A DNA stretch of 64,000 nt from Psilocybe cubensis (taxonomy: Eukaryota), in assembly GCA_017499595.2 (NCBI GenBank), contig CM038999.1, positions 2,170,001-2,234,000 of the forward strand. Direction: 5' to 3'. Below the pieces are notes generated by a model. It did not search any database, was not told the DNA's origin, and saw only the letters and a list, made by a program, of their open reading frames with translations. Below, piece after piece: positions 23,887 through 53,466 of this stretch. Within the stretch, counting starts at the first letter, position 1. Every line of letters begins with the position of its first letter. Position numbers and translations under genes: made by a program.

Positions 23887-23944
23887 TCCGTCCCAAACTT
23901 GAGAAATCAACCATCCCCGGTTGCGGAAGAAAGGGGGGGATAGA

Positions 23945-26900: not shown

Positions 26901-29277
26901 AAGCGAGTGAGCGTTCATTGAGTTTAAGAATATGAAGGAAAAGCTTTTTTTCTTCCGGCCATAGGAATTTGTTGGCGTTAATGTTCATTGATTGTATGCG
27001 TTCAAGAGTGAGTCTGGTTGTTGGCGTAAAGGCAGGGGGATGGAGTGGGAGAGGTGGGAGAGATAATAAGGGATCAACAGGAATTCGTCGTATAACTTTG
27101 GCCGATTCTGGAGTAACCCGATTTATAGGTCTAACTTTCCGATCGACTCGTTTATAGGCTGTATTGGCAGAAGAGGGGGAAAGAATAGGTGATATGAATT
27201 GATTCATGGAGGCTCGGAAGGTTGATAGTGTCGATCCTGATGCGGCAGTGAATACAAAACCAATTGTAGGAGAGCTTGACGACCTTGCCGAATTAGTTCG
27301 GTTGACGGTGGGTTTAGCAGTAATATCTGAATTGAGTGACCATGATCTCGCATAAATGCTTTGATCTATCCAAAATTTCTGTAGGTCTTGACCCATCAGA
27401 GGTAATGGAGTGGTTGTCCTTCTTATCTTGTCCGTAAGCTTGATTTTTTGCTCTTTGTGGATAAGATGAAGCCCTTCCCAATTCTGTAGAAGTTCGAGGT
27501 GTATTGGAGGCGTGATGATGGTGTATATTAGAGATAGAGATTCCGTATAGCATTCCTTTGGGAGATTGCTTGTGTTTCTCCAAGAACTCTGCAATAGGTG
27601 ACCTGAGGATTCGTTTGCGGACTGAAGTGGTGAAGCGGAGGTAGAACAAATAAATAAAAGGGAGGAATAAATAAAGGTTAGTTTAACGACTTTTCGGTCG
27701 ACGTACATACAAATGGATAAAGTGGAAAGAAAATGAAAATAAAAGGTAAAGAAAAAGGTTGTATGGCGTGGAGTTGCTATTGAGAGTGTGAATGTGAGGA
27801 AAAGGCGCATAAAAGAAAAGTGGAGGCGTTCAAGAACTCGTTGCACAAATGAAAAATCTACATAAGTGCCCGTGAAATGGAAAAGAGAAACGCAAAATGT
27901 GGGAATAAAATGGGAAGTGGGATAAAGGCATAACAATGAGGAAGAAGAAACACCAGGAATAGCAAAGGTGACAAAGAAAAATTGAGGGGATTGGAGAACA
28001 AAAAGAGGGCGTTGAGGAAGCAAGCTGATGTCCATGCACCATCCAGATAGTCAGTACAATGTGTTGGCGTCCAAGGGATGTTCTTCCGTGTTGTCAATAC
28101 CAAAGGGACTTTTCTCTCCATACTGATAGTACCATTCATTTCCATTGTCCATATTTGAAGCTCGCGATTCGTGCATTGTGCTGGTTATGGGAAGAGGTAA
28201 AAGGGAAGAATTGTGGTCGACCTCTTTGCCATTTTGGGTGATTCGTAGCTCTTCTTCATCTTCGTTTAATGGCTCTTTCGGGCTGTCATGGGCTACTCGC
28301 AGAGGATGTACCAAAGCTTTCAGGCCTCGATGATGCTCATCTACATTTGCGGTGACCGTCAATGATACACGTGTTTCTTGGTGAATCATAATCAAAAGAG
28401 GCGTTTCTGGAAGAGCAGAACTTCGGGAATGAGGTTGGGGAATAGAAGAAGCGTTTTGAGAGCGAATGGATTGGGGATTAAAATGAGTCCAGGATGCTGA
28501 GTGACGTTGGCCCATTGGATAGGCACTGACTGAAGCAGAGTGGTTAGATTGAGATGAGATACCAGTGCGACTGAAGTGTAGAATAGTTGGAGTCGTTTTC
28601 AAGTTTATATGGCTGTCTCTCTGCAGATAAACATAATGGACAAAGGCCGTTCCTATTTGGTCAGAAACAACACGAGTAGGAGAAGAGTAAGTGGCGTCGT
28701 ATAGAATCCAGTCTTCAAAGCGCAAGTGGGGGTTGAGCATTCCCATAGCCATAAGGTGAGTATTGTCAGAAGAGAATTGAATAGCTTCTACTTCAGGTGA
28801 GCTCAATTGTTCCATTTCTGGATTGTCGTCAGCTGGTTTTTCTTCATGTGGGTCGTTATTGTCTGAAGTGTGGGATTTGATGGACGGATTGACAGATGGT
28901 GATGGTGGCTGTTCTATTTGTGGGGCCTCATGTGTGGAATCATAAGGTGGTGTGGAAATATGACCATAATGGGCTGTCGCATTGAATTGAGAAGTTCCCG
29001 AGTCATCTTGATACATTGAGTCATAATCGGAAGCGTAGAGACCGTGAGAGGAGTCCTGAGTCGAGTCATGTTTGCAGTTGGAGTCAGAAAAAGAGGGTGC
29101 ATCTTGTGAAGTAGATAAGTCCTTATTTGGGTTAGCAGATTTGTCCCGATTCAGAGATTGTTGCCTAGTAAGGATAGATAACTCGATCATGGAAGGGGTA
29201 GGTGATGGATAGCAAAGGTTGTCCAATAATTCACCGGGTTCTAAATCTTCTTCAATTTCACCTTCTTTGGCATCCGG
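23945..29277 (-). pseudogene. Ty3/Gypsy pol (long spacer, RT, RNase H, integrase, GPY), inverted and disrupted
   Basis: RT VFDLYWGYD and VFIDDIPIKG; RNase H VDTSHIAIG, YSQPKLELYG, VDAKYIKG; INT HEELGH..CHEC, VDVMYM, RMDNG, NGSIERGH; LGPYKVV. No chromodomain seen. Stops, frameshifts and a 19-bp duplication at 24822-24859. Confidence 0.92.
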
Positions 29278-30907
29278 TATCATACCCCAATCCTGATTGG
29301 AGATGAGATGTTCATTTTGGATCTACACACAACGCCCTCAACCCAAGCAGTCATTCTTTTCATAAGTCATCCACACATCTTATCTTATCAACACTCGTCA
29401 CATGGGAGCCACGTTATTCCGGATCATGTCACTTCGTCGGATCATCAAGGCTATGCGACGGATCAGTCAACCATCAAAACTGCACAGCTTTCTACACTGC
29501 CTTGCACAGCCGGACTGTCAACTCTATTTTTATCAATTCAATGGTCTTACTCAGCCTCAGGCTGCGGATTACTCATTCCAACTTATTTTTGGTTTGTCTT
29601 ACTCATCCTTTTGTGTTTATTTATATCTTTTCTATTGTCTGTTGCGCTTTTATTGTCTTTGTCTTACCAATCTTCTATGCTTTCTGACTCATCCTTGCTT
29701 CTTTTATCTAATCTGTATTACCATTCACCTTCGTCATACACTTCTTTCTTACTCATCCTATTCATTTCTTATCTGTCGTCGTGTTGATATTGACATGCCT
29801 TATTGTTCTTGCTTATTGTTACACTTGCGTAGCCTCATTCTTGACACTTTGTACAGTATATGACTCGGTTTTCAGTAGCTCAGATTGGTATTTCGTTCAC
29901 GTAGCTTTTAGTATAAAAGCTGTAGTAGAATTACACGAAATGACAGGAAAGTTACACCCAGTCCCCACTTTCTTCAAAGCAAGTCAATTTTCATCCAAGT
30001 CAAGTCAATTTCAAGTCAATCCACATCGATTCATTTCAATTCCAAGCTCAAGTTCAAGCCAAGCCCAAACCCAAGTCCAATTCAGTCCTCAGTTCTACCC
30101 TCCGTCGAGACCAAGTTTACTTCCATTCATCCAAAGTCATCTCGCTTTCCATTAAGAGAGGATTTCATCCGAGACCAGTCATCCTCCTCATCCAACGCCT
30201 CTTCTTCTCAGCGTTGAATATCCAACTTCTATCCAGACCTCCAGTACTTCCCTACTTCCTCTCCTCCATTCAATCCGTCACCGCTCCTACTCTTTCTATA
30301 CCTTCCAACCATCGCCGTTAGGAGTGTATTCAAGACATCCTTTCCCTCTGTCAACTCATCTGGAGCGATTTCATTCGAGACAGACTTAGTCTTTCATCCT
30401 TGATTCAGTCAATACTCCTGCGACGTATAGCTTCATTCCAAGCTTCAGAAAGATTGTCAATTTAAAGACACTTTCACCATTCTTCAAGATTCAGCCCGTT
30501 AACGACATTCCGACCCCTAGTCATCTTCTCATCTCCCCTCGGAACGTTCCCCACTCACTTCAGACAACCCCTCTAAGATTCACATTTATTGATTTCTCAT
30601 ACGCATTCTACGCATCTTCTTCACGCTTTCCATATACACCCGCCATTCAATTCCACGGTTCCATCCCATTTTCGGAAGGCTTATTTACTATCGTACCCAG
30701 ACGACCCGGTTATCCTCTTCTTACTATTTCGCTTTTGTTACCCTTCACAATCCACACCATCCTAATCTACTTAAATCCTAGGCAGCGTCCTCCCTTAAGA
30801 AACTTAGGAGAAGGTTTTGTCCTATCCAGTCTGGACCACTCTTTCCCTGAGGTTTGTGTTTGTTGGATTACATATAGTTTATAACCAATCACAAACTTCG
30901 ATCTTCA
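29278..30907 (+). mobile_element. Ty3/Gypsy solo LTR 'D' (1630 bp); right inversion breakpoint
   Basis: CCGG|TATCATACCCC...GATCTTCA|GCGC. Near-identical to LTR B in the opposite orientation. Confidence 0.93.
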
Positions 30908-30913
30908 GCGCAC

Positions 30914-32428
30914 ATGTGGGAAGAGGCTGCTAACACAGAATTCAATCTGTTGCAGCACAATCAAACTTGGGAGCAAGTTGAGCTCCCTCCGGGTCAAAAG
31001 GCAATTGGCTGTGGTTGGGTCTTTAAAATCAAGCAAAATGCACATGGCAGTATAGAGTGCTACAAGGCTTGTATTGTTGCCAAGGGCTACAGTCAGCGCC
31101 CTGGCATTGATTACCATGAGGTCTTTGCTCCTACTTTCCGCCCTGCTACTTTCCGCTTGATTGTGGCTCTGGCCGCCATTGGAGACTTGAAGTTGCACTC
31201 TGTTGATATTACAGCTGCTTTCACTAAAGGTGACCTAGACGAGGAGATTTACATGTTACAACCTGAAGGATTTCACCAAGGTGGCCCTAACATAGTTTTG
31301 AAGCTTAAAAAGTCGCTCTATGGTCTTAAGCAGTCTGCACGTCAATGGAACCTCAAGTTGCATGAGGCATTGTCAGATATGGGGTTCAAGCGTATAGAAT
31401 CAGATCGCTCTGTCTACATCTATTCAGATGGAGATGTGAAGATTATTGTTCCCATTTACATTGATGACATCACCTTTGCCTCCAAATCGGACGCCGCCAT
31501 AGACAGAGCTGTTAAGCAGCTGGCTGCGCGTTTTGAACTCCGTGATCTGGGTCCTACACAGTATTTACTTGGTGTTGCCATTGAGCGAGATATGGCTGCT
31601 AAAACCATTTCCTTGCATCAGCGTCAGTATATCCTTGATATGCTTGATACATATGGCATGACTGATTCTAATCCGGTCAAAACACCTTTGGCTGTGGGCA
31701 CTGTTCTGTCCAAGGCAGATGGACCTCAGAATGGAGATGAGGTGGAATTTATGCGAAATGTTCCCTATCTCAATGCAGTTGGCTCCTTGCAGTATCTAGC
31801 CACCATGACCCGTCCTGACATTGCTTTTACTGTGTCCTATCTGGCACGCTTCAACTCCAATCCTGGGCCTAAGCATTGGGCTGCGGTTAAACATTTATTC
31901 CGCTACCTCAGAGGCACTCTGGATTACAAGTTGACTTATTCTGGCGCTGTGGGCCATGATAACTTTGTTACCTACACTGATGCTGCACATGGTGATTGTG
32001 TAGATACTGGACGCTCTACGAGTGGTTATTTGACCGTTCTAGCTGGAGGTGCTATTGGCTGGGCAAGCAAACTCCAAACTGTTGTAACTCTGTCTACTAC
32101 TGAGGCAGAGTACATTGCTGCGGTGGAGGCAGCCAAGGAAATTGTGTGGATGCGCAATATCCTTGAGGAGTTTGGCTACACAGTCACTGAGCCCTCTGTG
32201 CTGCATATGGACAACCAGTCATCTATCAGTGTTTCCAAGAATCCAGAGCACCATGGACGGATGAAGCACCTTGATTTGCGCTATTATTGGCTTAGGGATG
32301 CTGTTGGTGTTGGAAAGATTTCTCCTTCTTATATTCCTACTGATCAGCAAGCTGCTGATATTCTTACCAAACCCCTCTCACCTCCTAAAGTGGACTTTTG
32401 TAGAGATAAAATGGGTCTCAAACTTTAA
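30914..32428 (+). CDS. Copia RT-RNase H (3' half of the interrupted first unit)
   Basis: YIDD RT motif; RNase H YTDA, TEAEY, MDNQS, ADILTK. Confidence 0.85.
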   Translation: MWEEAANTEFNLLQHNQTWEQVELPPGQKAIGCGWVFKIKQNAHGSIECYKACIVAKGYSQRPGIDYHEVFAPTFRPATFRLIVALAAIGDLKLHSVDITAAFTKGDLDEEIYMLQPEGFHQGGPNIVLKLKKSLYGLKQSARQWNLKLHEALSDMGFKRIESDRSVYIYSDGDVKIIVPIYIDDITFASKSDAAIDRAVKQLAARFELRDLGPTQYLLGVAIERDMAAKTISLHQRQYILDMLDTYGMTDSNPVKTPLAVGTVLSKADGPQNGDEVEFMRNVPYLNAVGSLQYLATMTRPDIAFTVSYLARFNSNPGPKHWAAVKHLFRYLRGTLDYKLTYSGAVGHDNFVTYTDAAHGDCVDTGRSTSGYLTVLAGGAIGWASKLQTVVTLSTTEAEYIAAVEAAKEIVWMRNILEEFGYTVTEPSVLHMDNQSSISVSKNPEHHGRMKHLDLRYYWLRDAVGVGKISPSYIPTDQQAADILTKPLSPPKVDFCRDKMGLKL

Positions 32429-32491
32429 TCTTTCTTTCTCTGTTTTGCTTTATTTTTCTTTGTTCTGGAGACTTGTCAGAACAGGGGGGAG

Positions 32492-32930
32492 TGTTAAAAC
32501 TGCTCTCTATGTCTCCCTCACTTTGCTATCTTATCAGATTAGATTACTTTCTTCTTATCTTCATTTGCTCTCCAGACCATTCTAGACACATGATATTTAT
32601 CAGTCCATAGACTGGTCTGGACCGGACCAGAGTAGACCTAGGTAGACCAGAGTACTTGAGTCTACACAGTATATAGTCACTCTAGTTTACATCCTGAAGT
32701 CCCCAGTTACTCACTTCGGACTTCAGGTTAGTTTGTTAGCACTTTGCTCAATTCACTCAGTTACTCACTTCGGACTTCAGACGCTTCGTGCTCGCTTATC
32801 CCTGCGCCCTACGTTCTATAACTAGGTCGCCGAGTAGCTCACACTGCCCCGAGCTCGCCTGCTTCAACACTACGTTCTATAACTAGGTCGCCAAGTAGCT
32901 CACACTGTCTTGAGCTCGCCTGCTTCAACA
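32492..32930 (+). mobile_element. Copia LTR (439 bp including a 61-bp U5 duplication), preceded by PPT AGGGGGGAG and followed by PBS GGTTATGGGCCCC
   Basis: TGTTAA...TTCAACA termini. The PBS is of the copia/Ty5 (Hemivirus) type, complementary to the tRNAiMet anticodon arm. Confidence 0.95.
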
Positions 32931-33333
32931 GGTTATGGGCCCCGCGCTCTAAGCGCTCCAATTCCGTGTTTTGCGAACCAAGTTGCTTTCTGCATAGTTT
33001 TCACAAAACGGTCATTTTAGTCTTTTTTGCTTTTTATCCTCTACCAGGCCCGGCCATACATTGCCGCTGCTAGTAGGGTTGAACGAGCACGCCTTACGCG
33101 ACTTGTTAACCTCGGTTGAGCGGGCCCCCGTCGCCTAATCCCCGAGTTATTTCTAGTTAAAAGTAACCCTTTTAAATTAGGCTAGTTTAACTTCGTCTTT
33201 TCCACTTGCGTTCGCATCGCACCCCGAGCTCCGGGTAACGCCTAGTTCGTTTCCACACATCATTACACATTCCCACACATTACTACCAACACTCGTATCC
33301 ATCCGCTTACGCGTTCCTTCGCAATTCGCAATA

Positions 33334-34575
33334 ATGATTTCTGATCCCCAAATCACTCCATTGAACTCAACCAACTACAACACCTGGGCAGGCCAGATGA
33401 CCGCCTATCTCCAGTCTAAAGGGATATGGCGCATTGTCAGCGGTGCTAGAGCACAGCCAACGCTCTCAGACAAGCCTACTGCTCAGGAGGAAGCTTTGCT
33501 TGAAACCTACTTTGAGCAGAGAGACAAAGCATGTGGTTTGATCTATCTCAGTTTGGAGAATGATCAGATGGTTCATGTGGAAGCCATCAAGGATGATTCT
33601 ATCAAGATGTGGGATGCCCTCGCCGCTGTACATCAGCAAAAGCGCCCTGGCAACCGCTTTAATGCATATGATGATCTGTTCTCAATCCGAAAGGAGGAAG
33701 GTGAAAACCTTCAAACCCTGATCAATAGGGTTGAGCAAGCCATGTTGCTAATTCAGCAGCTTCGCCCTAAGGGGTTTGATCTGGCTAAGCTTGATAAAGA
33801 GCTTGCTTCGCTTGCTTTGGTCAGGGCACTCCCAGAAGAGTACAGTTCATTTGCATCCTCACTTCTCCTTTTGGACAAGTTGGACAAGGCTACAATTCAT
33901 CAAGCCTTTGTCACAGAGGACATACAGCGACGTCGCCGCGCTTCGGAGTTGCCTGCACTTGCCACCGCGTTCCAGACCGCTCCAGCCCCTTCTGCATCCA
34001 AGCCCAAGTGCGCATTTTGTGATATGACCAATCATGCAATGGACAAGTGTCACAAGTTCATTGCTGCGCAAAAGGATGCGAAGGAGCGTGTCAAAGCGGC
34101 TCGCAAAGGCAATAGAGCGCACAAGGCCTCAGAGGCATTTAGTGAGGAAAAAGAGTCCAAGGACATGGAATTTGCTGGAAATGCAAGTGCTCTTAATACC
34201 GATGTTCCCTCCGATGTTCCCTCTTCCATTTCACCCCAAACTAATGACGATTGGATTGCAGACACAGGGACGACTTCTCATATGACGCCCCATCGCAATT
34301 GGGTTAGAAATTACACCCCCCTTCGCATTCCAATCCGATTAGCAGATGAACGAGTTATTTATTCTGCAGGGGTGGGCACTGTGTTCTTTGAACCAGTTGT
34401 AAATGGAATAAAGTCAAGAGGCGTCGAGTTAACTAGAGTTTTACATGTACCAGATCTCCGAAACAATCTACTGTCTGTTCTATACCTCACAAAGCACAAA
34501 GGCTTCAAAATCACCATTGATGCTAATCTGGTCCTATCTCGCCCCCTACTCCTGAAGGCTATCGCTACTGGATAA
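33334..34575 (+). CDS. Copia Gag-protease (unit 1), ending in a short frameshift-derived tail
   Basis: LNSTNYNTW gag start, zinc knuckle CAFCDMTNHAMDKC, protease WIADTG(T)TSHM. Confidence 0.88.
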   Translation: MISDPQITPLNSTNYNTWAGQMTAYLQSKGIWRIVSGARAQPTLSDKPTAQEEALLETYFEQRDKACGLIYLSLENDQMVHVEAIKDDSIKMWDALAAVHQQKRPGNRFNAYDDLFSIRKEEGENLQTLINRVEQAMLLIQQLRPKGFDLAKLDKELASLALVRALPEEYSSFASSLLLLDKLDKATIHQAFVTEDIQRRRRASELPALATAFQTAPAPSASKPKCAFCDMTNHAMDKCHKFIAAQKDAKERVKAARKGNRAHKASEAFSEEKESKDMEFAGNASALNTDVPSDVPSSISPQTNDDWIADTGTTSHMTPHRNWVRNYTPLRIPIRLADERVIYSAGVGTVFFEPVVNGIKSRGVELTRVLHVPDLRNNLLSVLYLTKHKGFKITIDANLVLSRPLLLKAIATG

Positions 34576-34610
34576 CCTTTATTGATGACCATACAAAGAG
34601 TAGAGCTGCT

Positions 34611-37142
34611 GTGCTTCTTAAGCGCAAAAGCGATGCATTCAGTGCGTTTCAAACGTACAAAGCATGGGCTGAGAACAAATTAGGCTTTAAGATCAAAGCG
34701 CTGCAGGATGACAAAGCTGGTGAATACATGTCAAATGCTTTCATCAAATTCACTGACCAGTGTGGCATTGAGCGTCGTCATACAACGCGAAATCGCCCAC
34801 AACAAAACGGAGTTGCAGAGCGTGCAAATCGCACCATGGCAGAACATGTTACTTCCATGCTCAATGAGGCTCGTGTTCCACCTTTGTTTTGGGGTCGCTG
34901 TGTTGCAGCATACATGCATGTATGGAATCGTGTTCCTACAGCTCCTCTACCGGACAAGACTCTGTATGAAAGCTGGAACAAGCGCAAACCTGATGTTAGT
35001 CATTTGAGGGTTTGGGGTTGTCTTGCATATGTTTATGTTCAGGGAGATAAGCGCAAATCGTTGCAGCCTCATATGGAGAAGTGTATCTTTGTTGGGTATC
35101 ATACTGGGTACAAGGGCTGGAAGTTTTACAACCCACTCACCAAAAGGTTCATTATCTCTGAGAGAGCTGATTTCGACGAAAGGTGCTTCCCTGGGGTGTC
35201 CACTGGCCCTATGCCAAAGTTTGACCTTCTTCCCACTTCTTCTGCAAGTGCACCACCTCCCAATTCAGGGGGGGAATCTAATGGCTTCAATTTTGATGAT
35301 AATGAGGATGACTCTACTCCAAGTCCTGTCATTGAGCCAGAAGTGCCTATTGCGCCTCCTGAACAGCCAGCTGAACCGCCACAGCCTGAGGCCGTTCCTG
35401 CACCTCTTCCTAAGCCTGCACGCCGCCAGCGTGCTCCAGTTGATCCTGCAACGTTGAGACGCACTACTCGCGTTCCTAAGCAGCCTGGTGAATGGTGGAA
35501 GGTCTCACATGATCCTGAACCACCTGAAGCCAATGATCCTAGATTTGAAGAGGTGGAGTTTGCTGGGCTTGTTTCAAGCGCAGATCCGCGCACATTTAAA
35601 CAGGCAATGAAAGCGCCTGATGCGCACATGTGGGAAGAGGCTGCTAACACAGAATTCAATCTGTTGCAGCACAATCAAACTTGGGAGCAAGTTGAGCTCC
35701 CTCCGGGTCAAAAGGCAATTGGCTGTGGTTGGGTCTTTAAAATCAAGCAAAATGCACATGGCAGTATAGAGTGCTACAAGGCTCGTATTGTTGCCAAGGG
35801 CTACAGTCAGCGCCCTGGCATTGATTACCATGAGGTCTTTGCTCCTACTTTCCGCCCTGCTACTTTCCGCTTGATTGTGGCTCTGGCCGCCATTGGAGAC
35901 TTGAAGTTGCACTCTGTTGATATTACAGCTGCTTTCACTAAAGGTGACCTAGACGAGGAGATTTACATGTTACAACCTGAAGGATTTCACCAAGGTGGCC
36001 CTAACATAGTTTTGAAGCTTAAAAAGTCGCTCTATGGTCTTAAGCAGTCTGCACGTCAATGGAACCTCAAGTTGCATGAGGCATTGTCAGATATGGGGTT
36101 CAAGCGTATAGAATCAGATCGCTCTGTCTACATCTATTCAGATGGAGATGTGAAGATTATTGTTCCCATTTACATTGATGACATCACCTTTGCCTCCAAA
36201 TCGGACGCCGCCATAGACAGAGCTGTTAAGCAGCTGGCTGCGCGTTTTGAACTCCGTGATCTGGGTCCTACACAGTATTTACTTGGTGTTGCCATTGAGC
36301 GAGATATGGCTGCTAAAACCATTTCCTTGCATCAGCGTCAGTATATCCTTGATATGCTTGATACATATGGCATGACTGATTCTAATCCGGTCAAAACACC
36401 TTTGGCTGTGGGCACTGTTCTGTCCAAGGCAGATGGACCTCAGAATGGAGATGAGGTGGAATTTATGCGAAATGTTCCCTATCTCAATGCAGTTGGCTCC
36501 TTGCAGTATCTAGCCACCATGACCCGTCCTGACATTGCTTTTACTGTGTCCTATCTGGCACGCTTCAACTCCAATCCTGGGCCTAAGCATTGGGCTGCGG
36601 TTAAACATTTATTCCGCTACCTCAGAGGCACTCTGGATTACAAGTTGACTTATTCTGGCGCTGTGGGCCATGATAACTTTGTTACCTACACTGATGCTGC
36701 ACATGGTGATTGTGTAGATACTGGACGCTCTACGAGTGGTTATTTGACCGTTCTAGCTGGAGGTGCTATTGGCTGGGCAAGCAAACTCCAAACTGTTGTA
36801 ACTCTGTCTACTACTGAGGCAGAGTACATTGCTGCGGTGGAGGCAGCCAAGGAAATTGTGTGGATGCGCAATATCCTTGAGGAGTTTGGCTACACAGTCA
36901 CTGAGCCCTCTGTGCTGCATATGGACAACCAGTCATCTATCAGTGTTTCCAAGAATCCAGAGCACCATGGACGGATGAAGCACCTTGATTTGCGCTATTA
37001 TTGGCTTAGGGATGCTGTTGGTGTTGGAAAGATTTCTCCTTCTTATATTCCTACTGATCAGCAAGCTGCTGATATTCTTACCAAACCCCTCTCACCTCCT
37101 AAAGTGGACTTTTGTAGAGATAAAATGGGTCTCAAACTTTAA
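34611..37142 (+). CDS. Copia N-truncated integrase-RT-RNase H (unit 1); the frame is open from 34527 and the ORF-track start is not an ATG
   Basis: GPISPPTPEGYRYWITFIDD, LQDDKAGEY, QQNGVAERANR, YIDD and RNase H motifs. Confidence 0.85.
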   Translation: MLLKRKSDAFSAFQTYKAWAENKLGFKIKALQDDKAGEYMSNAFIKFTDQCGIERRHTTRNRPQQNGVAERANRTMAEHVTSMLNEARVPPLFWGRCVAAYMHVWNRVPTAPLPDKTLYESWNKRKPDVSHLRVWGCLAYVYVQGDKRKSLQPHMEKCIFVGYHTGYKGWKFYNPLTKRFIISERADFDERCFPGVSTGPMPKFDLLPTSSASAPPPNSGGESNGFNFDDNEDDSTPSPVIEPEVPIAPPEQPAEPPQPEAVPAPLPKPARRQRAPVDPATLRRTTRVPKQPGEWWKVSHDPEPPEANDPRFEEVEFAGLVSSADPRTFKQAMKAPDAHMWEEAANTEFNLLQHNQTWEQVELPPGQKAIGCGWVFKIKQNAHGSIECYKARIVAKGYSQRPGIDYHEVFAPTFRPATFRLIVALAAIGDLKLHSVDITAAFTKGDLDEEIYMLQPEGFHQGGPNIVLKLKKSLYGLKQSARQWNLKLHEALSDMGFKRIESDRSVYIYSDGDVKIIVPIYIDDITFASKSDAAIDRAVKQLAARFELRDLGPTQYLLGVAIERDMAAKTISLHQRQYILDMLDTYGMTDSNPVKTPLAVGTVLSKADGPQNGDEVEFMRNVPYLNAVGSLQYLATMTRPDIAFTVSYLARFNSNPGPKHWAAVKHLFRYLRGTLDYKLTYSGAVGHDNFVTYTDAAHGDCVDTGRSTSGYLTVLAGGAIGWASKLQTVVTLSTTEAEYIAAVEAAKEIVWMRNILEEFGYTVTEPSVLHMDNQSSISVSKNPEHHGRMKHLDLRYYWLRDAVGVGKISPSYIPTDQQAADILTKPLSPPKVDFCRDKMGLKL

Positions 37143-37205
37143 TCTTTCTTTCTCTGTTTTGCTTTATTTTTCTTTGTTCTGGAGACTTGTCAGAACAGGG
37201 GGGAG

Positions 37206-37644
37206 TGTTAAAACTGCTCTCTATGTCTCCCTCACTTTGCTATCTTATCAGATTAGATTACTTTCTTCTTATCTTCATTTGCTCTCCAGACCATTCTAGA
37301 CACATGATATTTATCAGTCCATAGACTGGTCTGGACCGGACCAGAGTAGACCTAGGTAGACCAGAGTACTTGAGTCTACACAGTATATAGTCACTCTAGT
37401 TTACATCCTGAAGTCCCCAGTTACTCACTTCGGACTTCAGGTTAGTTTGTTAGCACTTTGCTCAATTCACTCAGTTACTCACTTCGGACTTCAGACGCTT
37501 CGTGCTCGCTTATCCCTGCGCCCTACGTTCTATAACTAGGTCGCCGAGTAGCTCACACTGCCCCGAGCTCGCCTGCTTCAACACTACGTTCTATAACTAG
37601 GTCGCCAAGTAGCTCACACTGTCTTGAGCTCGCCTGCTTCAACA
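37206..37644 (+). mobile_element. Copia LTR (array)
   Basis: Copy of 32492-32930, with PPT and PBS. Confidence 0.95.
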
Positions 37645-38047
37645 GGTTATGGGCCCCGCGCTCTAAGCGCTCCAATTCCGTGTTTTGCGAACCAAGTTGC
37701 TTTCTGCATAGTTTTCACAAAACGGTCATTTTAGTCTTTTTTGCTTTTTATCCTCTACCAGGCCCGGCCATACATTGCCGCTGCTAGTAGGGTTGAACGA
37801 GCACGCCTTACGCGACTTGTTAACCTCGGTTGAGCGGGCCCCCGTCGCCTAATCCCCGAGTTATTTCTAGTTAAAAGTAACCCTTTTAAATTAGGCTAGT
37901 TTAACTTCGTCTTTTCCACTTGCGTTCGCATCGCACCCCGAGCTCCGGGTAACGCCTAGTTCGTTTCCACACATCATTACACATTCCCACACATTACTAC
38001 CAACACTCGTATCCATCCGCTTACGCGTTCCTTCGCAATTCGCAATA

Positions 38048-39289
38048 ATGATTTCTGATCCCCAAATCACTCCATTGAACTCAACCAACTACAACACCTG
38101 GGCAGGCCAGATGACCGCCTATCTCCAGTCTAAAGGGATATGGCGCATTGTCAGCGGTGCTAGAGCACAGCCAACGCTCTCAGACAAGCCTACTGCTCAG
38201 GAGGAAGCTTTGCTTGAAACCTACTTTGAGCAGAGAGACAAAGCATGTGGTTTGATCTATCTCAGTTTGGAGAATGATCAGATGGTTCATGTGGAAGCCA
38301 TCAAGGATGATTCTATCAAGATGTGGGATGCCCTCGCCGCTGTACATCAGCAAAAGCGCCCTGGCAACCGCTTTAATGCATATGATGATCTGTTCTCAAT
38401 CCGAAAGGAGGAAGGTGAAAACCTTCAAACCCTGATCAATAGGGTTGAGCAAGCCATGTTGCTAATTCAGCAGCTTCGCCCTAAGGGGTTTGATCTGGCT
38501 AAGCTTGATAAAGAGCTTGCTTCGCTTGCTTTGGTCAGGGCACTCCCAGAAGAGTACAGTTCATTTGCATCCTCACTTCTCCTTTTGGACAAGTTGGACA
38601 AGGCTACAATTCATCAAGCCTTTGTCACAGAGGACATACAGCGACGTCGCCGCGCTTCGGAGTTGCCTGCACTTGCCACCGCGTTCCAGACCGCTCCAGC
38701 CCCTTCTGCATCCAAGCCCAAGTGCGCATTTTGTGATATGACCAATCATGCAATGGACAAGTGTCACAAGTTCATTGCTGCGCAAAAGGATGCGAAGGAG
38801 CGTGTCAAAGCGGCTCGCAAAGGCAATAGAGCGCACAAGGCCTCAGAGGCATTTAGTGAGGAAAAAGAGTCCAAGGACATGGAATTTGCTGGAAATGCAA
38901 GTGCTCTTAATACCGATGTTCCCTCCGATGTTCCCTCTTCCATTTCACCCCAAACTAATGACGATTGGATTGCAGACACAGGGGCGACTTCTCATATGAC
39001 GCCCCATCGCAATTGGGTTAGAAATTACACCCCCCTTCGCATTCCAATCCGATTAGCAGATGAACGAGTTATTTATTCTGCAGGGGTGGGCACTGTGTTC
39101 TTTGAACCAGTTGTAAATGGAATAAAGTCAAGAGGCGTCGAGTTAACTAGAGTTTTACATGTACCAGATCTCCGAAACAATCTACTGTCTGTTCTATACC
39201 TCACAAAGCACAAAGGCTTCAAAATCACCATTGATGCTAATCTGGTCCTATCTCGCCCCCTACTCCTGAAGGCTATCGCTACTGGATAA
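38048..39289 (+). CDS. Copia Gag-protease (unit 2)
   Basis: 413 aa; CCHC knuckle; ADTGATSHM. Confidence 0.88.
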   Translation: MISDPQITPLNSTNYNTWAGQMTAYLQSKGIWRIVSGARAQPTLSDKPTAQEEALLETYFEQRDKACGLIYLSLENDQMVHVEAIKDDSIKMWDALAAVHQQKRPGNRFNAYDDLFSIRKEEGENLQTLINRVEQAMLLIQQLRPKGFDLAKLDKELASLALVRALPEEYSSFASSLLLLDKLDKATIHQAFVTEDIQRRRRASELPALATAFQTAPAPSASKPKCAFCDMTNHAMDKCHKFIAAQKDAKERVKAARKGNRAHKASEAFSEEKESKDMEFAGNASALNTDVPSDVPSSISPQTNDDWIADTGATSHMTPHRNWVRNYTPLRIPIRLADERVIYSAGVGTVFFEPVVNGIKSRGVELTRVLHVPDLRNNLLSVLYLTKHKGFKITIDANLVLSRPLLLKAIATG

Positions 39290-39324
39290 CCTTTATTGAT
39301 GACCATACAAAGAGTAGAGCTGCT

Positions 39325-41856
39325 GTGCTTCTTAAGCGCAAAAGCGATGCATTCAGTGCGTTTCAAACGTACAAAGCATGGGCTGAGAACAAATTAGGCT
39401 TTAAGATCAAAGCGCTGCAGGATGACAAAGCTGGTGAATACATGTCAAATGCTTTCATCAAATTCACTGACCAGTGTGGCATTGAGCGTCGTCATACAAC
39501 GCGAAATCGCCCACAACAAAACGGAGTTGCAGAGCGTGCAAATCGCACCATGGCAGAACATGTTACTTCCATGCTCAATGAGGCTCGTGTTCCACCTTTG
39601 TTTTGGGGTCGCTGTGTTGCAGCATACATGCATGTATGGAATCGTGTTCCTACAGCTCCTCTACCGGACAAGACTCTGTATGAAAGCTGGAACAAGCGCA
39701 AACCTGATGTTAGTCATTTGAGGGTTTGGGGTTGTCTTGCATATGTTTATGTTCAGGGAGATAAGCGCAAATCGTTGCAGCCTCATATGGAGAAGTGTAT
39801 CTTTGTTGGGTATCATACTGGGTACAAGGGCTGGAAGTTTTACAACCCACTCACCAAAAGGTTCATTATCTCTGAGAGAGCTGATTTCGACGAAAGGTGC
39901 TTCCCTGGGGTGTCCACTGGCCCTATGCCAAAGTTTGACCTTCTTCCCACTTCTTCTGCAAGTGCACCACCTCCCAATTCAGGGGGGGAATCTAATGGCT
40001 TCAATTTTGATGATAATGAGGATGACTCTACTCCAAGTCCTGTCATTGAGCCAGAAGTGCCTATTGCGCCTCCTGAACAGCCAGCTGAACCGCCACAGCC
40101 TGAGGCCGTTCCTGCACCTCTTCCTAAGCCTGCACGCCGCCAGCGTGCTCCAGTTGATCCTGCAACGTTGAGACGCACTACTCGCGTTCCTAAGCAGCCT
40201 GGTGAATGGTGGAAGGTCTCACATGATCCTGAACCACCTGAAGCCAATGATCCTAGATTTGAAGAGGTGGAGTTTGCTGGGCTTGTTTCAAGCGCAGATC
40301 CGCGCACATTTAAACAGGCAATGAAAGCGCCTGATGCGCACATGTGGGAAGAGGCTGCTAACACAGAATTCAATCTGTTGCAGCACAATCAAACTTGGGA
40401 GCAAGTTGAGCTCCCTCCGGGTCAAAAGGCAATTGGCTGTGGTTGGGTCTTTAAAATCAAGCAAAATGCACATGGCAGTATAGAGTGCTACAAGGCTCGT
40501 ATTGTTGCCAAGGGCTACAGTCAGCGCCCTGGCATTGATTACCATGAGGTCTTTGCTCCTACTTTCCGCCCTGCTACTTTCCGCTTGATTGTGGCTCTGG
40601 CCGCCATTGGAGACTTGAAGTTGCACTCTGTTGATATTACAGCTGCTTTCACTAAAGGTGACCTAGACGAGGAGATTTACATGTTACAACCTGAAGGATT
40701 TCACCAAGGTGGCCCTAACATAGTTTTGAAGCTTAAAAAGTCGCTCTATGGTCTTAAGCAGTCTGCACGTCAATGGAACCTCAAGTTGCATGAGGCATTG
40801 TCAGATATGGGGTTCAAGCGTATAGAATCAGATCGCTCTGTCTACATCTATTCAGATGGAGATGTGAAGATTATTGTTCCCATTTACATTGATGACATCA
40901 CCTTTGCCTCCAAATCGGACGCCGCCATAGACAGAGCTGTTAAGCAGCTGGCTGCGCGTTTTGAACTCCGTGATCTGGGTCCTACACAGTATTTACTTGG
41001 TGTTGCCATTGAGCGAGATATGGCTGCTAAAACCATTTCCTTGCATCAGCGTCAGTATATCCTTGATATGCTTGATACATATGGCATGACTGATTCTAAT
41101 CCGGTCAAAACACCTTTGGCTGTGGGCACTGTTCTGTCCAAGGCAGATGGACCTCAGAATGGAGATGAGGTGGAATTTATGCGAAATGTTCCCTATCTCA
41201 ATGCAGTTGGCTCCTTGCAGTATCTAGCCACCATGACCCGTCCTGACATTGCTTTTACTGTGTCCTATCTGGCACGCTTCAACTCCAATCCTGGGCCTAA
41301 GCATTGGGCTGCGGTTAAACATTTATTCCGCTACCTCAGAGGCACTCTGGATTACAAGTTGACTTATTCTGGCGCTGTGGGCCATGATAACTTTGTTACC
41401 TACACTGATGCTGCACATGGTGATTGTGTAGATACTGGACGCTCTACGAGTGGTTATTTGACCGTTCTAGCTGGAGGTGCTATTGGCTGGGCAAGCAAAC
41501 TCCAAACTGTTGTAACTCTGTCTACTACTGAGGCAGAGTACATTGCTGCGGTGGAGGCAGCCAAGGAAATTGTGTGGATGCGCAATATCCTTGAGGAGTT
41601 TGGCTACACAGTCACTGAGCCCTCTGTGCTGCATATGGACAACCAGTCATCTATCAGTGTTTCCAAGAATCCAGAGCACCATGGACGGATGAAGCACCTT
41701 GATTTGCGCTATTATTGGCTTAGGGATGCTGTTGGTGTTGGAAAGATTTCTCCTTCTTATATTCCTACTGATCAGCAAGCTGCTGATATTCTTACCAAAC
41801 CCCTCTCACCTCCTAAAGTGGACTTTTGTAGAGATAAAATGGGTCTCAAACTTTAA
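39325..41856 (+). CDS. Copia truncated INT-RT-RNase H (unit 2)
   Basis: Same 843-aa frame as unit 1. Confidence 0.85.
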   Translation: MLLKRKSDAFSAFQTYKAWAENKLGFKIKALQDDKAGEYMSNAFIKFTDQCGIERRHTTRNRPQQNGVAERANRTMAEHVTSMLNEARVPPLFWGRCVAAYMHVWNRVPTAPLPDKTLYESWNKRKPDVSHLRVWGCLAYVYVQGDKRKSLQPHMEKCIFVGYHTGYKGWKFYNPLTKRFIISERADFDERCFPGVSTGPMPKFDLLPTSSASAPPPNSGGESNGFNFDDNEDDSTPSPVIEPEVPIAPPEQPAEPPQPEAVPAPLPKPARRQRAPVDPATLRRTTRVPKQPGEWWKVSHDPEPPEANDPRFEEVEFAGLVSSADPRTFKQAMKAPDAHMWEEAANTEFNLLQHNQTWEQVELPPGQKAIGCGWVFKIKQNAHGSIECYKARIVAKGYSQRPGIDYHEVFAPTFRPATFRLIVALAAIGDLKLHSVDITAAFTKGDLDEEIYMLQPEGFHQGGPNIVLKLKKSLYGLKQSARQWNLKLHEALSDMGFKRIESDRSVYIYSDGDVKIIVPIYIDDITFASKSDAAIDRAVKQLAARFELRDLGPTQYLLGVAIERDMAAKTISLHQRQYILDMLDTYGMTDSNPVKTPLAVGTVLSKADGPQNGDEVEFMRNVPYLNAVGSLQYLATMTRPDIAFTVSYLARFNSNPGPKHWAAVKHLFRYLRGTLDYKLTYSGAVGHDNFVTYTDAAHGDCVDTGRSTSGYLTVLAGGAIGWASKLQTVVTLSTTEAEYIAAVEAAKEIVWMRNILEEFGYTVTEPSVLHMDNQSSISVSKNPEHHGRMKHLDLRYYWLRDAVGVGKISPSYIPTDQQAADILTKPLSPPKVDFCRDKMGLKL

Positions 41857-41919
41857 TCTTTCTTTCTCTGTTTTGCTTTATTTTTCTTTGTTCTGGAGAC
41901 TTGTCAGAACAGGGGGGAG

Positions 41920-42358
41920 TGTTAAAACTGCTCTCTATGTCTCCCTCACTTTGCTATCTTATCAGATTAGATTACTTTCTTCTTATCTTCATTTGCTCTC
42001 CAGACCATTCTAGACACATGATATTTATCAGTCCATAGACTGGTCTGGACCGGACCAGAGTAGACCTAGGTAGACCAGAGTACTTGAGTCTACACAGTAT
42101 ATAGTCACTCTAGTTTACATCCTGAAGTCCCCAGTTACTCACTTCGGACTTCAGGTTAGTTTGTTAGCACTTTGCTCAATTCACTCAGTTACTCACTTCG
42201 GACTTCAGACGCTTCGTGCTCGCTTATCCCTGCGCCCTACGTTCTATAACTAGGTCGCCGAGTAGCTCACACTGCCCCGAGCTCGCCTGCTTCAACACTA
42301 CGTTCTATAACTAGGTCGCCAAGTAGCTCACACTGTCTTGAGCTCGCCTGCTTCAACA
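41920..42358 (+). mobile_element. Copia LTR (array)
   Basis: Copy of 32492-32930. Confidence 0.95.
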
Positions 42359-42761
42359 GGTTATGGGCCCCGCGCTCTAAGCGCTCCAATTCCGTGTTTT
42401 GCGAACCAAGTTGCTTTCTGCATAGTTTTCACAAAACGGTCATTTTAGTCTTTTTTGCTTTTTATCCTCTACCAGGCCCGGCCATACATTGCCGCTGCTA
42501 GTAGGGTTGAACGAGCACGCCTTACGCGACTTGTTAACCTCGGTTGAGCGGGCCCCCGTCGCCTAATCCCCGAGTTATTTCTAGTTAAAAGTAACCCTTT
42601 TAAATTAGGCTAGTTTAACTTCGTCTTTTCCACTTGCGTTCGCATCGCACCCCGAGCTCCGGGTAACGCCTAGTTCGTTTCCACACATCATTACACATTC
42701 CCACACATTACTACCAACACTCGTATCCATCCGCTTACGCGTTCCTTCGCAATTCGCAATA

Positions 42762-44003
42762 ATGATTTCTGATCCCCAAATCACTCCATTGAACTCAACC
42801 AACTACAACACCTGGGCAGGCCAGATGACCGCCTATCTCCAGTCTAAAGGGATATGGCGCATTGTCAGCGGTGCTAGAGCACAGCCAACGCTCTCAGACA
42901 AGCCTACTGCTCAGGAGGAAGCTTTGCTTGAAACCTACTTTGAGCAGAGAGACAAAGCATGTGGTTTGATCTATCTCAGTTTGGAGAATGATCAGATGGT
43001 TCATGTGGAAGCCATCAAGGATGATTCTATCAAGATGTGGGATGCCCTCGCCGCTGTACATCAGCAAAAGCGCCCTGGCAACCGCTTTAATGCATATGAT
43101 GATCTGTTCTCAATCCGAAAGGAGGAAGGTGAAAACCTTCAAACCCTGATCAATAGGGTTGAGCAAGCCATGTTGCTAATTCAGCAGCTTCGCCCTAAGG
43201 GGTTTGATCTGGCTAAGCTTGATAAAGAGCTTGCTTCGCTTGCTTTGGTCAGGGCACTCCCAGAAGAGTACAGTTCATTTGCATCCTCACTTCTCCTTTT
43301 GGACAAGTTGGACAAGGCTACAATTCATCAAGCCTTTGTCACAGAGGACATACAGCGACGTCGCCGCGCTTCGGAGTTGCCTGCACTTGCCACCGCGTTC
43401 CAGACCGCTCCAGCCCCTTCTGCATCCAAGCCCAAGTGCGCATTTTGTGATATGACCAATCATGCAATGGACAAGTGTCACAAGTTCATTGCTGCGCAAA
43501 AGGATGCGAAGGAGCGTGTCAAAGCGGCTCGCAAAGGCAATAGAGCGCACAAGGCCTCAGAGGCATTTAGTGAGGAAAAAGAGTCCAAGGACATGGAATT
43601 TGCTGGAAATGCAAGTGCTCTTAATACCGATGTTCCCTCCGATGTTCCCTCTTCCATTTCACCCCAAACTAATGACGATTGGATTGCAGACACAGGGGCG
43701 ACTTCTCATATGACGCCCCATCGCAATTGGGTTAGAAATTACACCCCCCTTCGCATTCCAATCCGATTAGCAGATGAACGAGTTATTTATTCTGCAGGGG
43801 TGGGCACTGTGTTCTTTGAACCAGTTGTAAATGGAATAAAGTCAAGAGGCGTCGAGTTAACTAGAGTTTTACATGTACCAGATCTCCGAAACAATCTACT
43901 GTCTGTTCTATACCTCACAAAGCACAAAGGCTTCAAAATCACCATTGATGCTAATCTGGTCCTATCTCGCCCCCTACTCCTGAAGGCTATCGCTACTGGA
44001 TAA
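42762..44003 (+). CDS. Copia Gag-protease (unit 3)
   Basis: Same 413-aa frame. Confidence 0.88.
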   Translation: MISDPQITPLNSTNYNTWAGQMTAYLQSKGIWRIVSGARAQPTLSDKPTAQEEALLETYFEQRDKACGLIYLSLENDQMVHVEAIKDDSIKMWDALAAVHQQKRPGNRFNAYDDLFSIRKEEGENLQTLINRVEQAMLLIQQLRPKGFDLAKLDKELASLALVRALPEEYSSFASSLLLLDKLDKATIHQAFVTEDIQRRRRASELPALATAFQTAPAPSASKPKCAFCDMTNHAMDKCHKFIAAQKDAKERVKAARKGNRAHKASEAFSEEKESKDMEFAGNASALNTDVPSDVPSSISPQTNDDWIADTGATSHMTPHRNWVRNYTPLRIPIRLADERVIYSAGVGTVFFEPVVNGIKSRGVELTRVLHVPDLRNNLLSVLYLTKHKGFKITIDANLVLSRPLLLKAIATG

Positions 44004-44038
44004 CCTTTATTGATGACCATACAAAGAGTAGAGCTGCT

Positions 44039-46570: not shown

Positions 46571-46633
46571 TCTTTCTTTCTCTGTTTTGCTTTATTTTTC
46601 TTTGTTCTGGAGACTTGTCAGAACAGGGGGGAG

Positions 46634-48717: not shown

Positions 48718-48752
48718 CCTTTATTGATGACCATACAAAGAGTAGAGCTGCT

Positions 48753-53431: not shown

Positions 53432-53466
53432 CCTTTATTGATGACCATACAAAGAGTAGAGCTGCT

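Follow-up and report, generated by a model that had tools for sequence, protein, structure and literature searches.

A tandem array of an integrase-deleted Ty1/copia element that begins at a homology junction with an older copy

The 64-kb window, which is the whole stretch of DNA analysed here, comes from an agaric mushroom, probably Psilocybe, and holds at least seven virtually identical head-to-tail units of a Ty1/copia LTR retrotransposon (Table 1). The unit is a non-autonomous deletion derivative without the N-terminal part of its integrase. The array is of recent origin, and at its visible end it joins an older copy, K1, through a homology junction. We propose that the integrase-null derivative was placed on K1 by integrase-independent homologous recombination, along a route like that of Tf1; we regard this origin as the probable one, with modest confidence.

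Table 1. Positions of the features in the window (u, unit coordinates)
Feature	Position	Strand	Remarks
Old Gypsy element, 5' LTR (X1) and gag-protease part	12612..17098	+	
Gypsy LTR copy X2	17099..18732	-	flanks: K1-left ...GCGC; other side CCGG and old Gypsy interior
Older copy, left half A = K1 left (u500-3197)	18729..21417	-	80 substitutions vs unit
Low-divergence patch in A (u1786-2456), approximate	19475..20145	-	window coordinates by hand from unit coordinates
Older fragment B (u2709-3927)	21420..22644	+	inverted relative to A; derived changes in common with A
Fragment C, complete old LTR and PBS	22645..23017	+	first base joined to RT position u3927 of B
Old Gypsy element, remainder (RT, RNase H, integrase, 3' LTR X3)	23018..29271	-	inverted vs its 5' part
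Gypsy LTR copy X4	29272..30905	+	flanks: old Gypsy interior ...CCGG; other side GCGC and array
Tandem array	30908..64000	+	7.02 units x 4,714 bp; extends past window end
Partial first unit D (u3194-4714)	30908..32428	+	array-type sequence; begins at edge of Gypsy LTR X4
Polypurine tract (PPT) AGAACAGGGGGGAG	32478..32491	+	directly 5' of LTR; read from sequence
LTR, one per unit, 439 bp, TGTT...AACA	32492..32930	+	read from sequence
Primer-binding site (PBS) GGTTATGGGCCCCGC	32931..32945	+	directly 3' of LTR; read from sequence
ORF1, Gag-protease, 413 aa, zinc knuckle and D-T-G active site	33334..34575	+	ATG 33334; Pfam
Deletion junction	34516..34543	+	breakpoint 34529/34530, 1-nt microhomology (G)
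ORF2, IN core remnant without first Asp, SH3-like, RT (YIDD), RNase H	34527..37142	+	-1 frame vs ORF1

Structure of the array and its unit

The array has a period of 4714 bp, composed of the LTR and a 4,275-bp internal region. The internal regions all have the same orientation with exactly one LTR between each, which is the arrangement of a shared-LTR tandem. The LTR shows the features of Ty1/copia, with TG...CA ends, a PBS directly after it and a PPT directly before it; the PBS is putatively of the half-tRNA-iMet, hemivirus-like type. The 5' end of the LTR is confirmed by joints in conspecific reads, which stop at 32491/32492, and the last 61 bp of the array LTR are duplicated (32809-32930). 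The domain order gag, protease, integrase, RT and RNase H, with a copia-type gag and an RVT_2 domain, likewise places the unit in Ty1/copia (Pseudoviridae). Relatives at E <= 0.001 number 1,210, with an identity of 69% for the best of them.

Over about 28 kb of unit-to-unit comparison, successive units differ at two positions only (31070 and 34270). Both private differences are in the first two array units, and the interior units are indistinguishable. Strictly, the array and its copy number rest on the genome assembly, and an assembler could have made the tandem arrangement or the copy number from dispersed near-identical copies or circular DNA. The indistinguishable interior would fit such an artefact, as would the best public holder, which has only 0.75 of the sampled words of the unit. 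We nevertheless consider an artefact very improbable, as the left junction is specific and biologically sensible, with a target duplication in common with A, and the first two units carry private differences. Furthermore, A and B, which lie in the same window, have kept their divergence and are not homogenised, which indicates that polishing did not flatten repeats.

The integrase deletion and the reading frames

First, ORF1 matches Retrotran_gag_2 (E 3e-23) and the Pol_BBD protease barrel, and runs through ...KGFKITIDAN into 15 frame-shifted codons up to the TAA at 34573-34575. The pol frame is opened by the TAA at 34524-34526, with SGPISPPTPEGYRYWITFIDD as its first residues. ORF2 matches the rve profile at positions 16-102 of 102 only, followed by SH3_retrovirus and RVT_2 (E 1e-66). 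The preliminary description had given these frames 413 and 843 codons; the former length is reproduced, and the latter is replaced by 871 codons stop to stop or 804 from the ATG at 34728.

In every unit, the protease end (…ITIDAN) is fused out of frame to the integrase core (GPISPPTPEGYRYW…), and the out-of-frame junction described earlier for 34500-34620, with the TAA in the pol frame, reads as claimed. About 349 nt (3n+1) have been lost here, and the breakpoint lies just past the first catalytic Asp. Alignment to full-length relatives, which had been suggested for sizing the deletion, gives a median loss of 116 residues (range 112-307) against 69 relatives, namely 68 matches of at least 1300 aa among the 120 matches listed and the relative P0003. 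The approximately 116 absent residues comprise the pre-integrase domain, the HHCC finger and the first catalytic Asp; in P0003, HHCC and HSDLH are located inside the segment absent from the unit. The same three losses had been read from the sequence before, and a six-frame Pfam scan agrees. The gag_pre-integrs profile finds no match in ORF1 or ORF2 and only one chance-level match (E 0.13, 12.5 bits vs a cut-off of 28.4) among another 56 ORFs, each 35 aa or longer, that were taken from the six frames of the unit, and rve finds none in these 56; both domains were found in the positive control, the full-length relative P0008. The second Asp (LQDDKAGEY) and the Glu (NGVAERAN) are kept. With neither an HHCC finger nor a complete D,D,E triad, the sequence supports the reading that the unit is integrase-dead.

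Full-length family members at 95% identity or more are abundant in conspecific strains, as seen in two raw-read runs under the same species label, X21 and X22. Reads leave the reference at 34530 (838 and 929 in X21, at a local depth of about 1,280; 781 and 891 in X22, at about 1,180) and, by eye, run into MEFHRKGACL... on one side and ...PLALIFSDLK on the other. These extensions are both ends of the missing segment, with the first Asp included, and most or all family copies in the two read sets are full-length.

Judging from its frames, the unit can still encode Gag-protease. Its RNA could be copied only with Pol from full-length family members, since the deletion puts RT-RNase H in the -1 frame behind a stop. 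Regarding the open RT-RNase H frame, three observations leave it unsupported as a sign of function: it carries private changes at RT and IN positions that are at least 90% conserved, synonymous changes are not in excess in the IN remnant when the copies are compared, and reading the 49-nt ORF1/ORF2 overlap by eye revealed no canonical -1 slippery site.

Non-autonomous LTR retrotransposons of the LARD, TRIM, TR-GAG and BARE2 types lack all ORFs or keep gag only, and BARE2 is without a functional gag. Like these, the unit keeps LTRs, PBS and PPT and depends on an autonomous relative for part of its machinery; unlike these, it is without the N-terminal part of the integrase only. The LARD, TRIM and TR-GAG classes were considered for the unit and are ruled out by the gag-PR frame of 413 aa and the 871-codon frame of IN remnant, RT and RNase H.

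The array could in principle be kept as a high-dose source of Gag-protease, or of antisense or small RNA, by which the family would be restrained or helped, in analogy to Ty1, whose copy number is controlled by a truncated Gag. The Gag-PR frame is open in all units, with a weak synonymous excess between A and the unit (16 observed vs 10.6 expected, permutation P = 0.029), and truncated Ty1 Gag is described in PMC4599808 as a restriction factor. Even so, by our analysis a functional locus of this kind is extremely improbable. With two differences the array is too young for selection, and the first full unit has a private change adjoining the protease active site. In addition, no array RNA was seen in one RNA-labelled run, which gave three contigs (one of Gypsy LTR and two of copia LTR and leader); the copia LTR contig is not derived from the array because it carries the single-copy variant of the 61-bp duplication.

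The older copies and the start of the array

Between A and the unit, 80 of 2,698 sites (3.0%) are different. A carries two stops, in gag-PR and in the IN remnant respectively, and an insertion of 5 nt. B has one stop together with 5-nt and 1-nt insertions, and the earlier statement that the relatives outside the array carry stops is correct for both. Where A and B overlap, 15 substitutions and a 5-nt indel are common to both against the unit. The joint of C within B looks, from its sequence, like a nested self-insertion. Joints similar to the B/C joint are also present in conspecific reads.

The 28-nt junction word occurs eight times in the window and not once in 100 shuffles. The array accounts for seven of these, and the eighth lies in A (19816-19843, minus strand), so that the junction is in every unit and in the older copy, as had been noted. 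A 671-bp patch around the junction of A shows one difference from the array unit, vs about 3% across the rest of A, and may be a recent conversion or recombination tract between A and the unit. The preliminary description had used the shared junction to place the deletion before the array. This dating is unsafe, since the junction of A may have been copied together with the patch.

The place where the array starts is marked by a Gypsy LTR. X2 and X4 differ at 15 of 1,636 sites (0.9%) and are thus 99% identical. K1-left ends with GCGC at X2 and the array starts with GCGC at X4, which is a 4-bp target duplication at u3194-3197, and CCGG is common to the other flanks of X2 and X4. The ORF of the old Gypsy element is continuous only with the LTR and exactly one CCGG removed; four shifted joins all hit a stop within 2-9 codons. 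These flanks and the continuity of the Gypsy ORF show that A, the Gypsy LTR and D were once contiguous and were later split by an inversion.

D shows one difference from the next unit. Of the 25 substitutions and the single indel that distinguish the old copy B from that unit, D has the unit allele at the indel and at all substitution sites but one (24 of 25). The array-type, young sequence begins within about 40-150 bp of the Gypsy LTR edge. The start of the array is therefore in register with the right half of K1, but its sequence is unlike the K1 lineage, and for this reason we conclude that homologous recombination, and not integration, put the array onto K1. The earlier proposal that the array grew without its own integrase stands in so far as there is no integration step at the visible end; its cDNA donor and the rise in copy number are parts of the proposed mechanism discussed below.

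Possible routes to the array and known systems

Blocked or weak integration of Ty1 and Ty5 diverts their cDNA into homologous recombination with resident copies. For Ty1 integrase mutants and Ty5 in Saccharomyces cerevisiae, such recombination is reported to give tandem or multimeric elements (work cited in PMC11042837 and PMC11899658), and PMC11042837 describes the route for the Ty1 mutants as integrase-independent. The array is similar in that it is formed by a copia-type element with one LTR between elements. However, the Ty1 and Ty5 cases are laboratory constructs with induced expression, whereas the array unit is natural and decaying and takes RT from helpers.

The closest precedent is Tf1 with a frameshifted integrase (Tf1-INfs) in Schizosaccharomyces pombe, for which the integrase-independent route has been shown by experiment. 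Li et al. (2022, PMC11042837) describe how most insertions of Tf1-INfs are at Tf2 copies already in the genome and how they form tandems with a single LTR between; the hybrids change over from resident to incoming sequence within RT or IN, and such tandems are polymorphic among wild isolates. The type is further defined by a cDNA donor, dependence on Rad52 single-strand annealing and, downstream, a return to resident sequence within an LTR. At its left end the array matches the described tandems: an integrase-less LTR element lies at a diverged, pre-existing relative, and the switch from resident to incoming sequence is inside the element, in the pol region. The two systems differ in that Tf1 is a self-priming Ty3/gypsy-type element of yeast and the array is Ty1/copia in an agaric. 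The described Tf1-INfs tandems have two units and the array has at least seven, and the integrase defect of the array is a natural deletion that also breaks the frame link to RT. By analogy, the array looks like a natural example of this known array-forming route.

Surveyed tandem LTR retrotransposons have the same LTR-internal-LTR-internal architecture and are described as young and polymorphic. The survey text proposes unequal LTR recombination, complex insertion and rolling circles as routes; the tandems that it covers are mostly dimers or trimers, and it does not link their formation to integrase loss.

In the Tf1-like origin that we propose, homologous recombination would have put the incoming deleted element onto the resident K1, already split by a Gypsy solo LTR, without an integrase cut at the visible end, so that the array continues from the right half of K1 and would be expected to return to K1-type sequence at its right end, past the window. 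The donor would be cDNA rather than chromosomal DNA, and the copy number may have been raised by further rounds or by unequal sister-chromatid exchange. Three points weigh against this origin. A helper particle that gives RT in trans also brings integrase, as both come from the same polyprotein, so loss of its own integrase does not force the element into an integrase-independent route, and no slippery site by which the element could make an IN-less Pol of its own was seen by eye. A single event is not enough for seven units unless the donor was multimeric or a rolling circle. Finally, chromosomal recombination alone could mimic the picture, by unequal LTR exchange and conversion up to the heterology.

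This last point can be stated as a full alternative with no cDNA: a deleted copy, integrated with a helper or lying beside K1, was amplified by unequal sister-chromatid exchange between LTRs, and conversion homogenised the right half of K1 up to the Gypsy LTR. Shared-LTR tandems of Drosophila and plants are commonly ascribed to LTR-LTR recombination in the accounts of PMC5932611 and PMC11899658, near-identical units fit rapid unequal exchange, and the patch in A suggests that DNA-level conversion may act between these copies. We judge it a real, if unlikely, possibility. If crossover points are random, young sequence that comes to about 40 bp from the heterology implies that many exchanges became fixed or that a single one was fortunate in its position. 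Had the array arisen from K1 itself, it should hold the Gypsy LTR or K1-type sequence, and it holds neither, and the separate young donor then required at or near the locus has left no trace within the window.

A one-LTR circle of 4,714 bp could also have been copied as a concatemer, for example by break-induced replication from the broken right half of K1, and then fixed. The unit length of an internal region and one LTR, the identity of the units, as from a single template, and the in-register start at a homology junction all agree with this, and rolling circles are among the routes to TE tandems proposed in PMC5932611. There is, however, no direct evidence of circles, and the literature examined holds no documented case for fungal LTR elements. 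The two private differences in the first two units also speak against a single template, though they are expected under any model. We consider a rolling circle improbable.

The Tf1-like origin can be carried further, to an integrase-null lineage that switched its mode of spreading, with cDNA made by helper RT captured by homology at resident copies, its own array included, instead of dispersing, and tandem growth in place feeding itself. We think this rather unlikely. If true, the array would represent in the wild, and with many units, what Tf1-INfs and Ty1 integrase mutants do in the laboratory. It could then also be the beginning of a change from transposon to satellite in a mushroom, and the unit-type patch in K1-left and the unit-type right half could mark the same cDNA-templated repair.

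In summary, the new observations are that the array starts exactly at the border of a Gypsy solo LTR, that A holds the 671-bp patch, and that the open pol frame gives no sign of function. They call for caution in annotation: open frames in a young array need not mean function, and a junction common to an array and an 'older' copy need not mean antiquity. Tandem LTR-retrotransposon arrays are regarded as seeds of satellite DNA and reservoirs of elements, and their natural start is still argued between unequal LTR exchange, integrase-independent cDNA recombination and rolling circles. The present locus is unusually readable: its donor has no integrase, its recipient bears an inversion and a Gypsy LTR insertion that can be dated, and old sequence gives way to young where homology ends. 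With its right end included, such a locus could separate these routes in a wild fungus.

The array unit and its missing integrase segment

The array is of the shared-LTR tandem type, (internal region–LTR)n, with a period of 4714 bp; the periodic run extends from 30908 past the window end and comprises 7.02 units. Successive units differ at two positions only, 31070 and 34270, and we regard an assembly artefact behind the array as highly improbable. Each LTR is preceded by a polypurine tract and followed by GGTTATGGGCCCCGC, which we take to be a half-tRNA-iMet (hemivirus-type) primer-binding site (PBS). Its 5′ end is confirmed by read joints that stop at 32491/32492.

Several further features of the LTR were observed. 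The terminal 61 bp of the array-type LTR, including the ...AACA end, are tandemly duplicated with a 93% match (32809–32930, in each unit). A joint skipping exactly 61 bp is common in conspecific reads and the old LTR of fragment C has one copy, so that the duplication marks the array lineage. The 20-nt word TTACTCACTTCGGACTTCAG occurs twice within the LTR (32707–32780), with a 34-nt GT...AG stretch between the copies. The LTR 5′ end is also repeatedly joined to the RT/IN interior of its own family, in the same or opposite orientation (22644/22645; read joints at 32491/32492), at positions such as 31796, 32031, 34991 and 31910, a pattern suggestive of frequent nesting of the family within itself or of aberrant strand transfer.

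Features of the array and of the older copia fragments (window positions; u, unit positions)
Feature	Position	Strand	Description
Fragment A (left half of K1)	18729–21417	minus	u500–3197
Fragment B	21420–22644	plus	u2709–3927
Fragment C	22645–23017	plus	full LTR + PBS; first base joined to the RT position u3927 of B
D (first partial array unit)	30908–32428
LTR of first unit	32492–32930		439 bp, TGTT...AACA; one per unit
ORF1 (gag-protease)	33181–34575		stop to stop; ATG 33334; 413 aa
ORF2 (integrase remnant-RT-RNase H)	34527–37142		frame opened by TAA 34524–34526

On re-reading, the sequence of 34500–34620 agrees with the preliminary description, in which the protease end is fused out of frame to the integrase core. 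ORF1 ends with ...LRNNLLSVLYLTKHKGFKITIDAN, followed by 15 shifted codons and TAA, and ORF2 starts with SGPISPPTPEGYRYWITFIDD. The pol frame has 871 codons between stops and 804 counted from ATG 34728; the figure of 843 reported at first was not reproduced. A 28-nt word across the junction occurs eight times in the window (seven in the array and one at 19816–19843 on the minus strand) versus none in 100 shuffles, and had no match in JGI metagenome contigs. Read by eye for a programmed −1 frameshift, the 49-nt overlap of the two frames (34527–34575) shows only a five-C run and, in the ORF1 frame, no X XXY YYZ heptamer.

Pfam recognizes a copia-type gag and the protease barrel (Pol_BBD, positions 1–79 of 81) in ORF1, and rve (positions 16–102 of 102), SH3_retrovirus and RVT_2 in ORF2; gag_pre-integrs has no Pfam match in either. 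A six-frame scan of one unit listed 60 ORFs of at least 35 aa, of which the two main ones had been scanned first, two are periodic repeats of scanned ORFs and the other 56 were scanned in turn. These 56 gave no match to rve, and gag_pre-integrs reached chance level only (E 0.13, 12.5 bits versus a cut-off of 28.4). Both domains were detected in the positive control, the full-length relative P0008 (gag_pre-integrs 427–477, rve 491–591). The HMM search of all frames of the unit is therefore negative and confirms the claim that the unit is integrase-dead. Alignment to 69 relatives (68 matches of at least 1300 aa plus P0003, among the 120 matches listed) puts the loss at a median of 116 residues (range 112–307), measured from where the ORF1 alignment stops to where the ORF2 alignment begins. 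In P0003, the segment absent from the unit contains H-x4-H...C-x2-C and ends with ...ELIHSDLH, which carries the first catalytic Asp. The unit keeps the second Asp (LQDDKAGEY), the Glu (NGVAERAN), the YIDD motif of RT and the D-T-G of the protease. The closest database proteins show 69% identity to ORF2 (near lengths) and 73% to residues 1–220 (shorter proteins); no near-identical family member was found in the protein database.

The array start on an older copy

The older copia fragments were found by a BLAST search of the window's left part with the unit as query, and by self-comparison. Fragment A, the left half of the decayed copy K1, has 80 substitutions in 2,698 sites relative to the unit (3.0%) and 19 indel columns, with 48 C>T or G>A changes versus 21 in the reverse direction. 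In the 490-bp overlap of A and B, 15 substitutions and a 5-nt indel relative to the unit are common to both fragments, and eight substitutions are private to A and seven to B; A also has a 2-nt end gap. These common and private changes indicate that K1 was already old when the Gypsy LTR X was inserted. Divergence between two copies of this LTR, X2 and X4, is 0.9% (15 of 1,636 sites).

The 1.64-kb Gypsy LTR is present in four copies in the window (X1–X4), and the Gypsy interior is in two parts: gag-protease follows X1 on the plus strand, and X3 is preceded, on the minus strand, by RT, RNase H and integrase. X2 is flanked by ...CCTGATGCGC of A on one side and by CCGGATTAGC... on the other; X4 is preceded by ...GGCATCCGG and followed by GCGCACATG..., then by the array. 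These flanks reveal two 4-bp target duplications, GCGC (copia u3194–3197) and CCGG (Gypsy interior), each divided between X2 and X4. When the Gypsy interior parts are joined with exactly one CCGG, the frame stays open across the join and extends from codon 442 as far as codon 847, where a stop already existed; each of the four alternative joins, offset by 1 or 2 nt, meets a stop within 2–9 codons. Inverted X solo LTRs, one in K1 and one in the old Gypsy element, would thus have recombined and inverted about 10.5 kb, and before this inversion A, X and D would have formed a single contiguous copy.

The inversion of about 10.5 kb, recognized by the swapped target duplications and the Gypsy ORF continuity, lies between 17099–18732 and 29272–30905, with 14245–17098 and 23887–29271. 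In the old Gypsy element, one in-frame stop (28051–28053, minus strand) separates the gag-protease part from the RT part; it may be a mutation or serve for read-through. Three further features lie upstream of the nest of repeats: an interstitial telomere-like CCCTAAT run (3601–3680), an ORF with a Tc3-type transposase HTH (6010–6675, E 4e-13) and part of a gene with a CAP-Gly domain (1–1761).

By its position D is the right half of K1, and it differs from the next unit at a single site in 1,521 bp. B and the unit differ at 25 substitution sites and one indel in u3194–3927; D has the unit state at 24 of these sites and at the indel, and the B state at 31070 only. The first informative site is 39 nt from X4. 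The unit-type alleles show that D is young sequence in an old position, and this young sequence starts at, or about 40–150 bp from, the homology edge set by X4. Judged from these alignments, the array start is a homologous-recombination junction later than the X insertion, and not an integrase junction. The young sequence of D at the K1 homology edge supports the earlier proposal that the array expanded by recombination.

Age of the deletion and state of the reading frames

The junction in A is the feature from which the deletion had been thought to predate the array. However, it lies within a 671-bp patch (u1786–2456; junction at u2096) in which A and the unit have one difference versus about 20 expected, so the argument is not supported as stated. 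Across 20,000 random placements, no stretch holding one substitution or none was longer than 480 bp. Hypomutability of the patch was rejected, since its GC content and CpG density resemble those of the flanks. The clustering, together with this flank-like composition, points to recent common ancestry of A and the array lineage in the patch, which may have come from gene conversion between nearby inverted copies, cDNA-templated repair or template switching. For the direction of copying, we counted departures at 303 columns whose conservation among 68 relatives is 90% or more. In the patch, the unit and A depart in common at 2 of 62 columns; elsewhere in pol, the unit departs privately at 4 of 118 and A at 1 of 73. 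The patch rate is near the private rate of the unit and not clearly apart from that of A. From these counts, the deletion may have been copied either from the array lineage to K1 or from K1 to the array lineage.

Reads were compared with 23887–35600, using the raw runs X21 and X22 (same species label), the contig run X1 and run X17, which is guessed to be RNA. Reads depart from the reference at 34530 in both directions (838 + 929 in X21, 781 + 891 in X22) with a consensus agreement of 0.97–0.99, at mean local depths of about 1,280 and 1,180, respectively. Translated by eye, the left loose end reads (…N)L-MEFHRKGACL and the right one PLALIFSDLK-(GPISPP…); they match the post-protease sequence and the first-Asp surroundings of the relatives. 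Most family copies in those strains are thus full-length, whether or not the deleted form also occurs there. The loose ends also place the breakpoint at 34529/34530, where one G is ambiguous; 3n+1 nt have been lost. Among the pieces listed for run X1, de Bruijn contigs break at 34514 and 34530, as two alternative paths might produce. Run X17 gave three contigs, one on the Gypsy LTR and two on the copia LTR and leader, at a depth of about 10–13; the contig on the copia LTR carries the 61-bp sequence once only and therefore does not derive from the array, and the run is uninformative on array expression.

Synonymous changes were compared with an expectation that controls for the observed mutation types and CpG context. 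They make up 16 of 32 changes in gag-protease between A and the unit (expected 10.6, P 0.029), 7 of 25 in the integrase remnant and linker between A and the unit (expected 7.3, P 0.64) and 14 of 35 in RT between B and the unit (expected 9.5, P 0.06). These values give weak signals of purifying selection on the deleted lineage in gag-protease and RT, and none in the integrase remnant. Plain Nei–Gojobori ratios (0.29, 0.73 and 0.50) overstate such selection because transitions dominate. Within the 303 columns, the unit departs privately, where A or B is conserved, at one position of gag (P>S), at two of IN-SH3 (P>L, P>H) and at two of RT (D>H, R>C; about 35757–35774, ORF2 residues about 411–416), where B keeps the conserved residues. 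Such departures indicate that the pol frame is decaying like a pseudogene still free of stops, and the seven open copies count as a single observation. With these private changes and no slippery heptamer by eye, the view that open frames imply function is not supported. The proposed roles in Gag dose and silencing find no support in these data. A private G>A at 34270 in the first full unit, relative to 38984 and the units that follow, changes D-T-G-A to D-T-G-T; Ala follows D-T-G in the other units and in P0007, P0008, P0011 and P0014.

Routes to the array

Neither tandem LTR elements nor integrase-independent tandem formation is new; a literature search for such arrays in Psilocybe found no paper. 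The usual explanation in plants and Drosophila (PMC11899658, PMC5932611) is chromosomal unequal exchange and conversion. Such a DNA-only route can give the same picture here and is possible, if unlikely. Rolling-circle copying of a one-LTR circle can yield this picture too, and we consider it improbable.

According to Li et al. (2022; PMC11042837), most insertions of Tf1 with a frameshifted integrase are at resident Tf2 copies. The tandems formed have a single LTR between the elements, hybrids switch from resident to incoming sequence in RT or IN, and the route requires Rad52 single-strand annealing. Similar behaviour is cited there for Ty1 integrase mutants and Ty5, and polymorphic tandems are reported from wild isolates. 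The Psilocybe array resembles this system in its integrase-less donor, in having a resident relative as the target with an internal sequence switch, and in units separated by single LTRs. A strict causal link from integrase loss to the recombination route is weakened, since helper particles that supply RT also supply integrase. Overall, we somewhat favour recombination of a cDNA donor onto the resident copy K1, with the expansion into an array following later.
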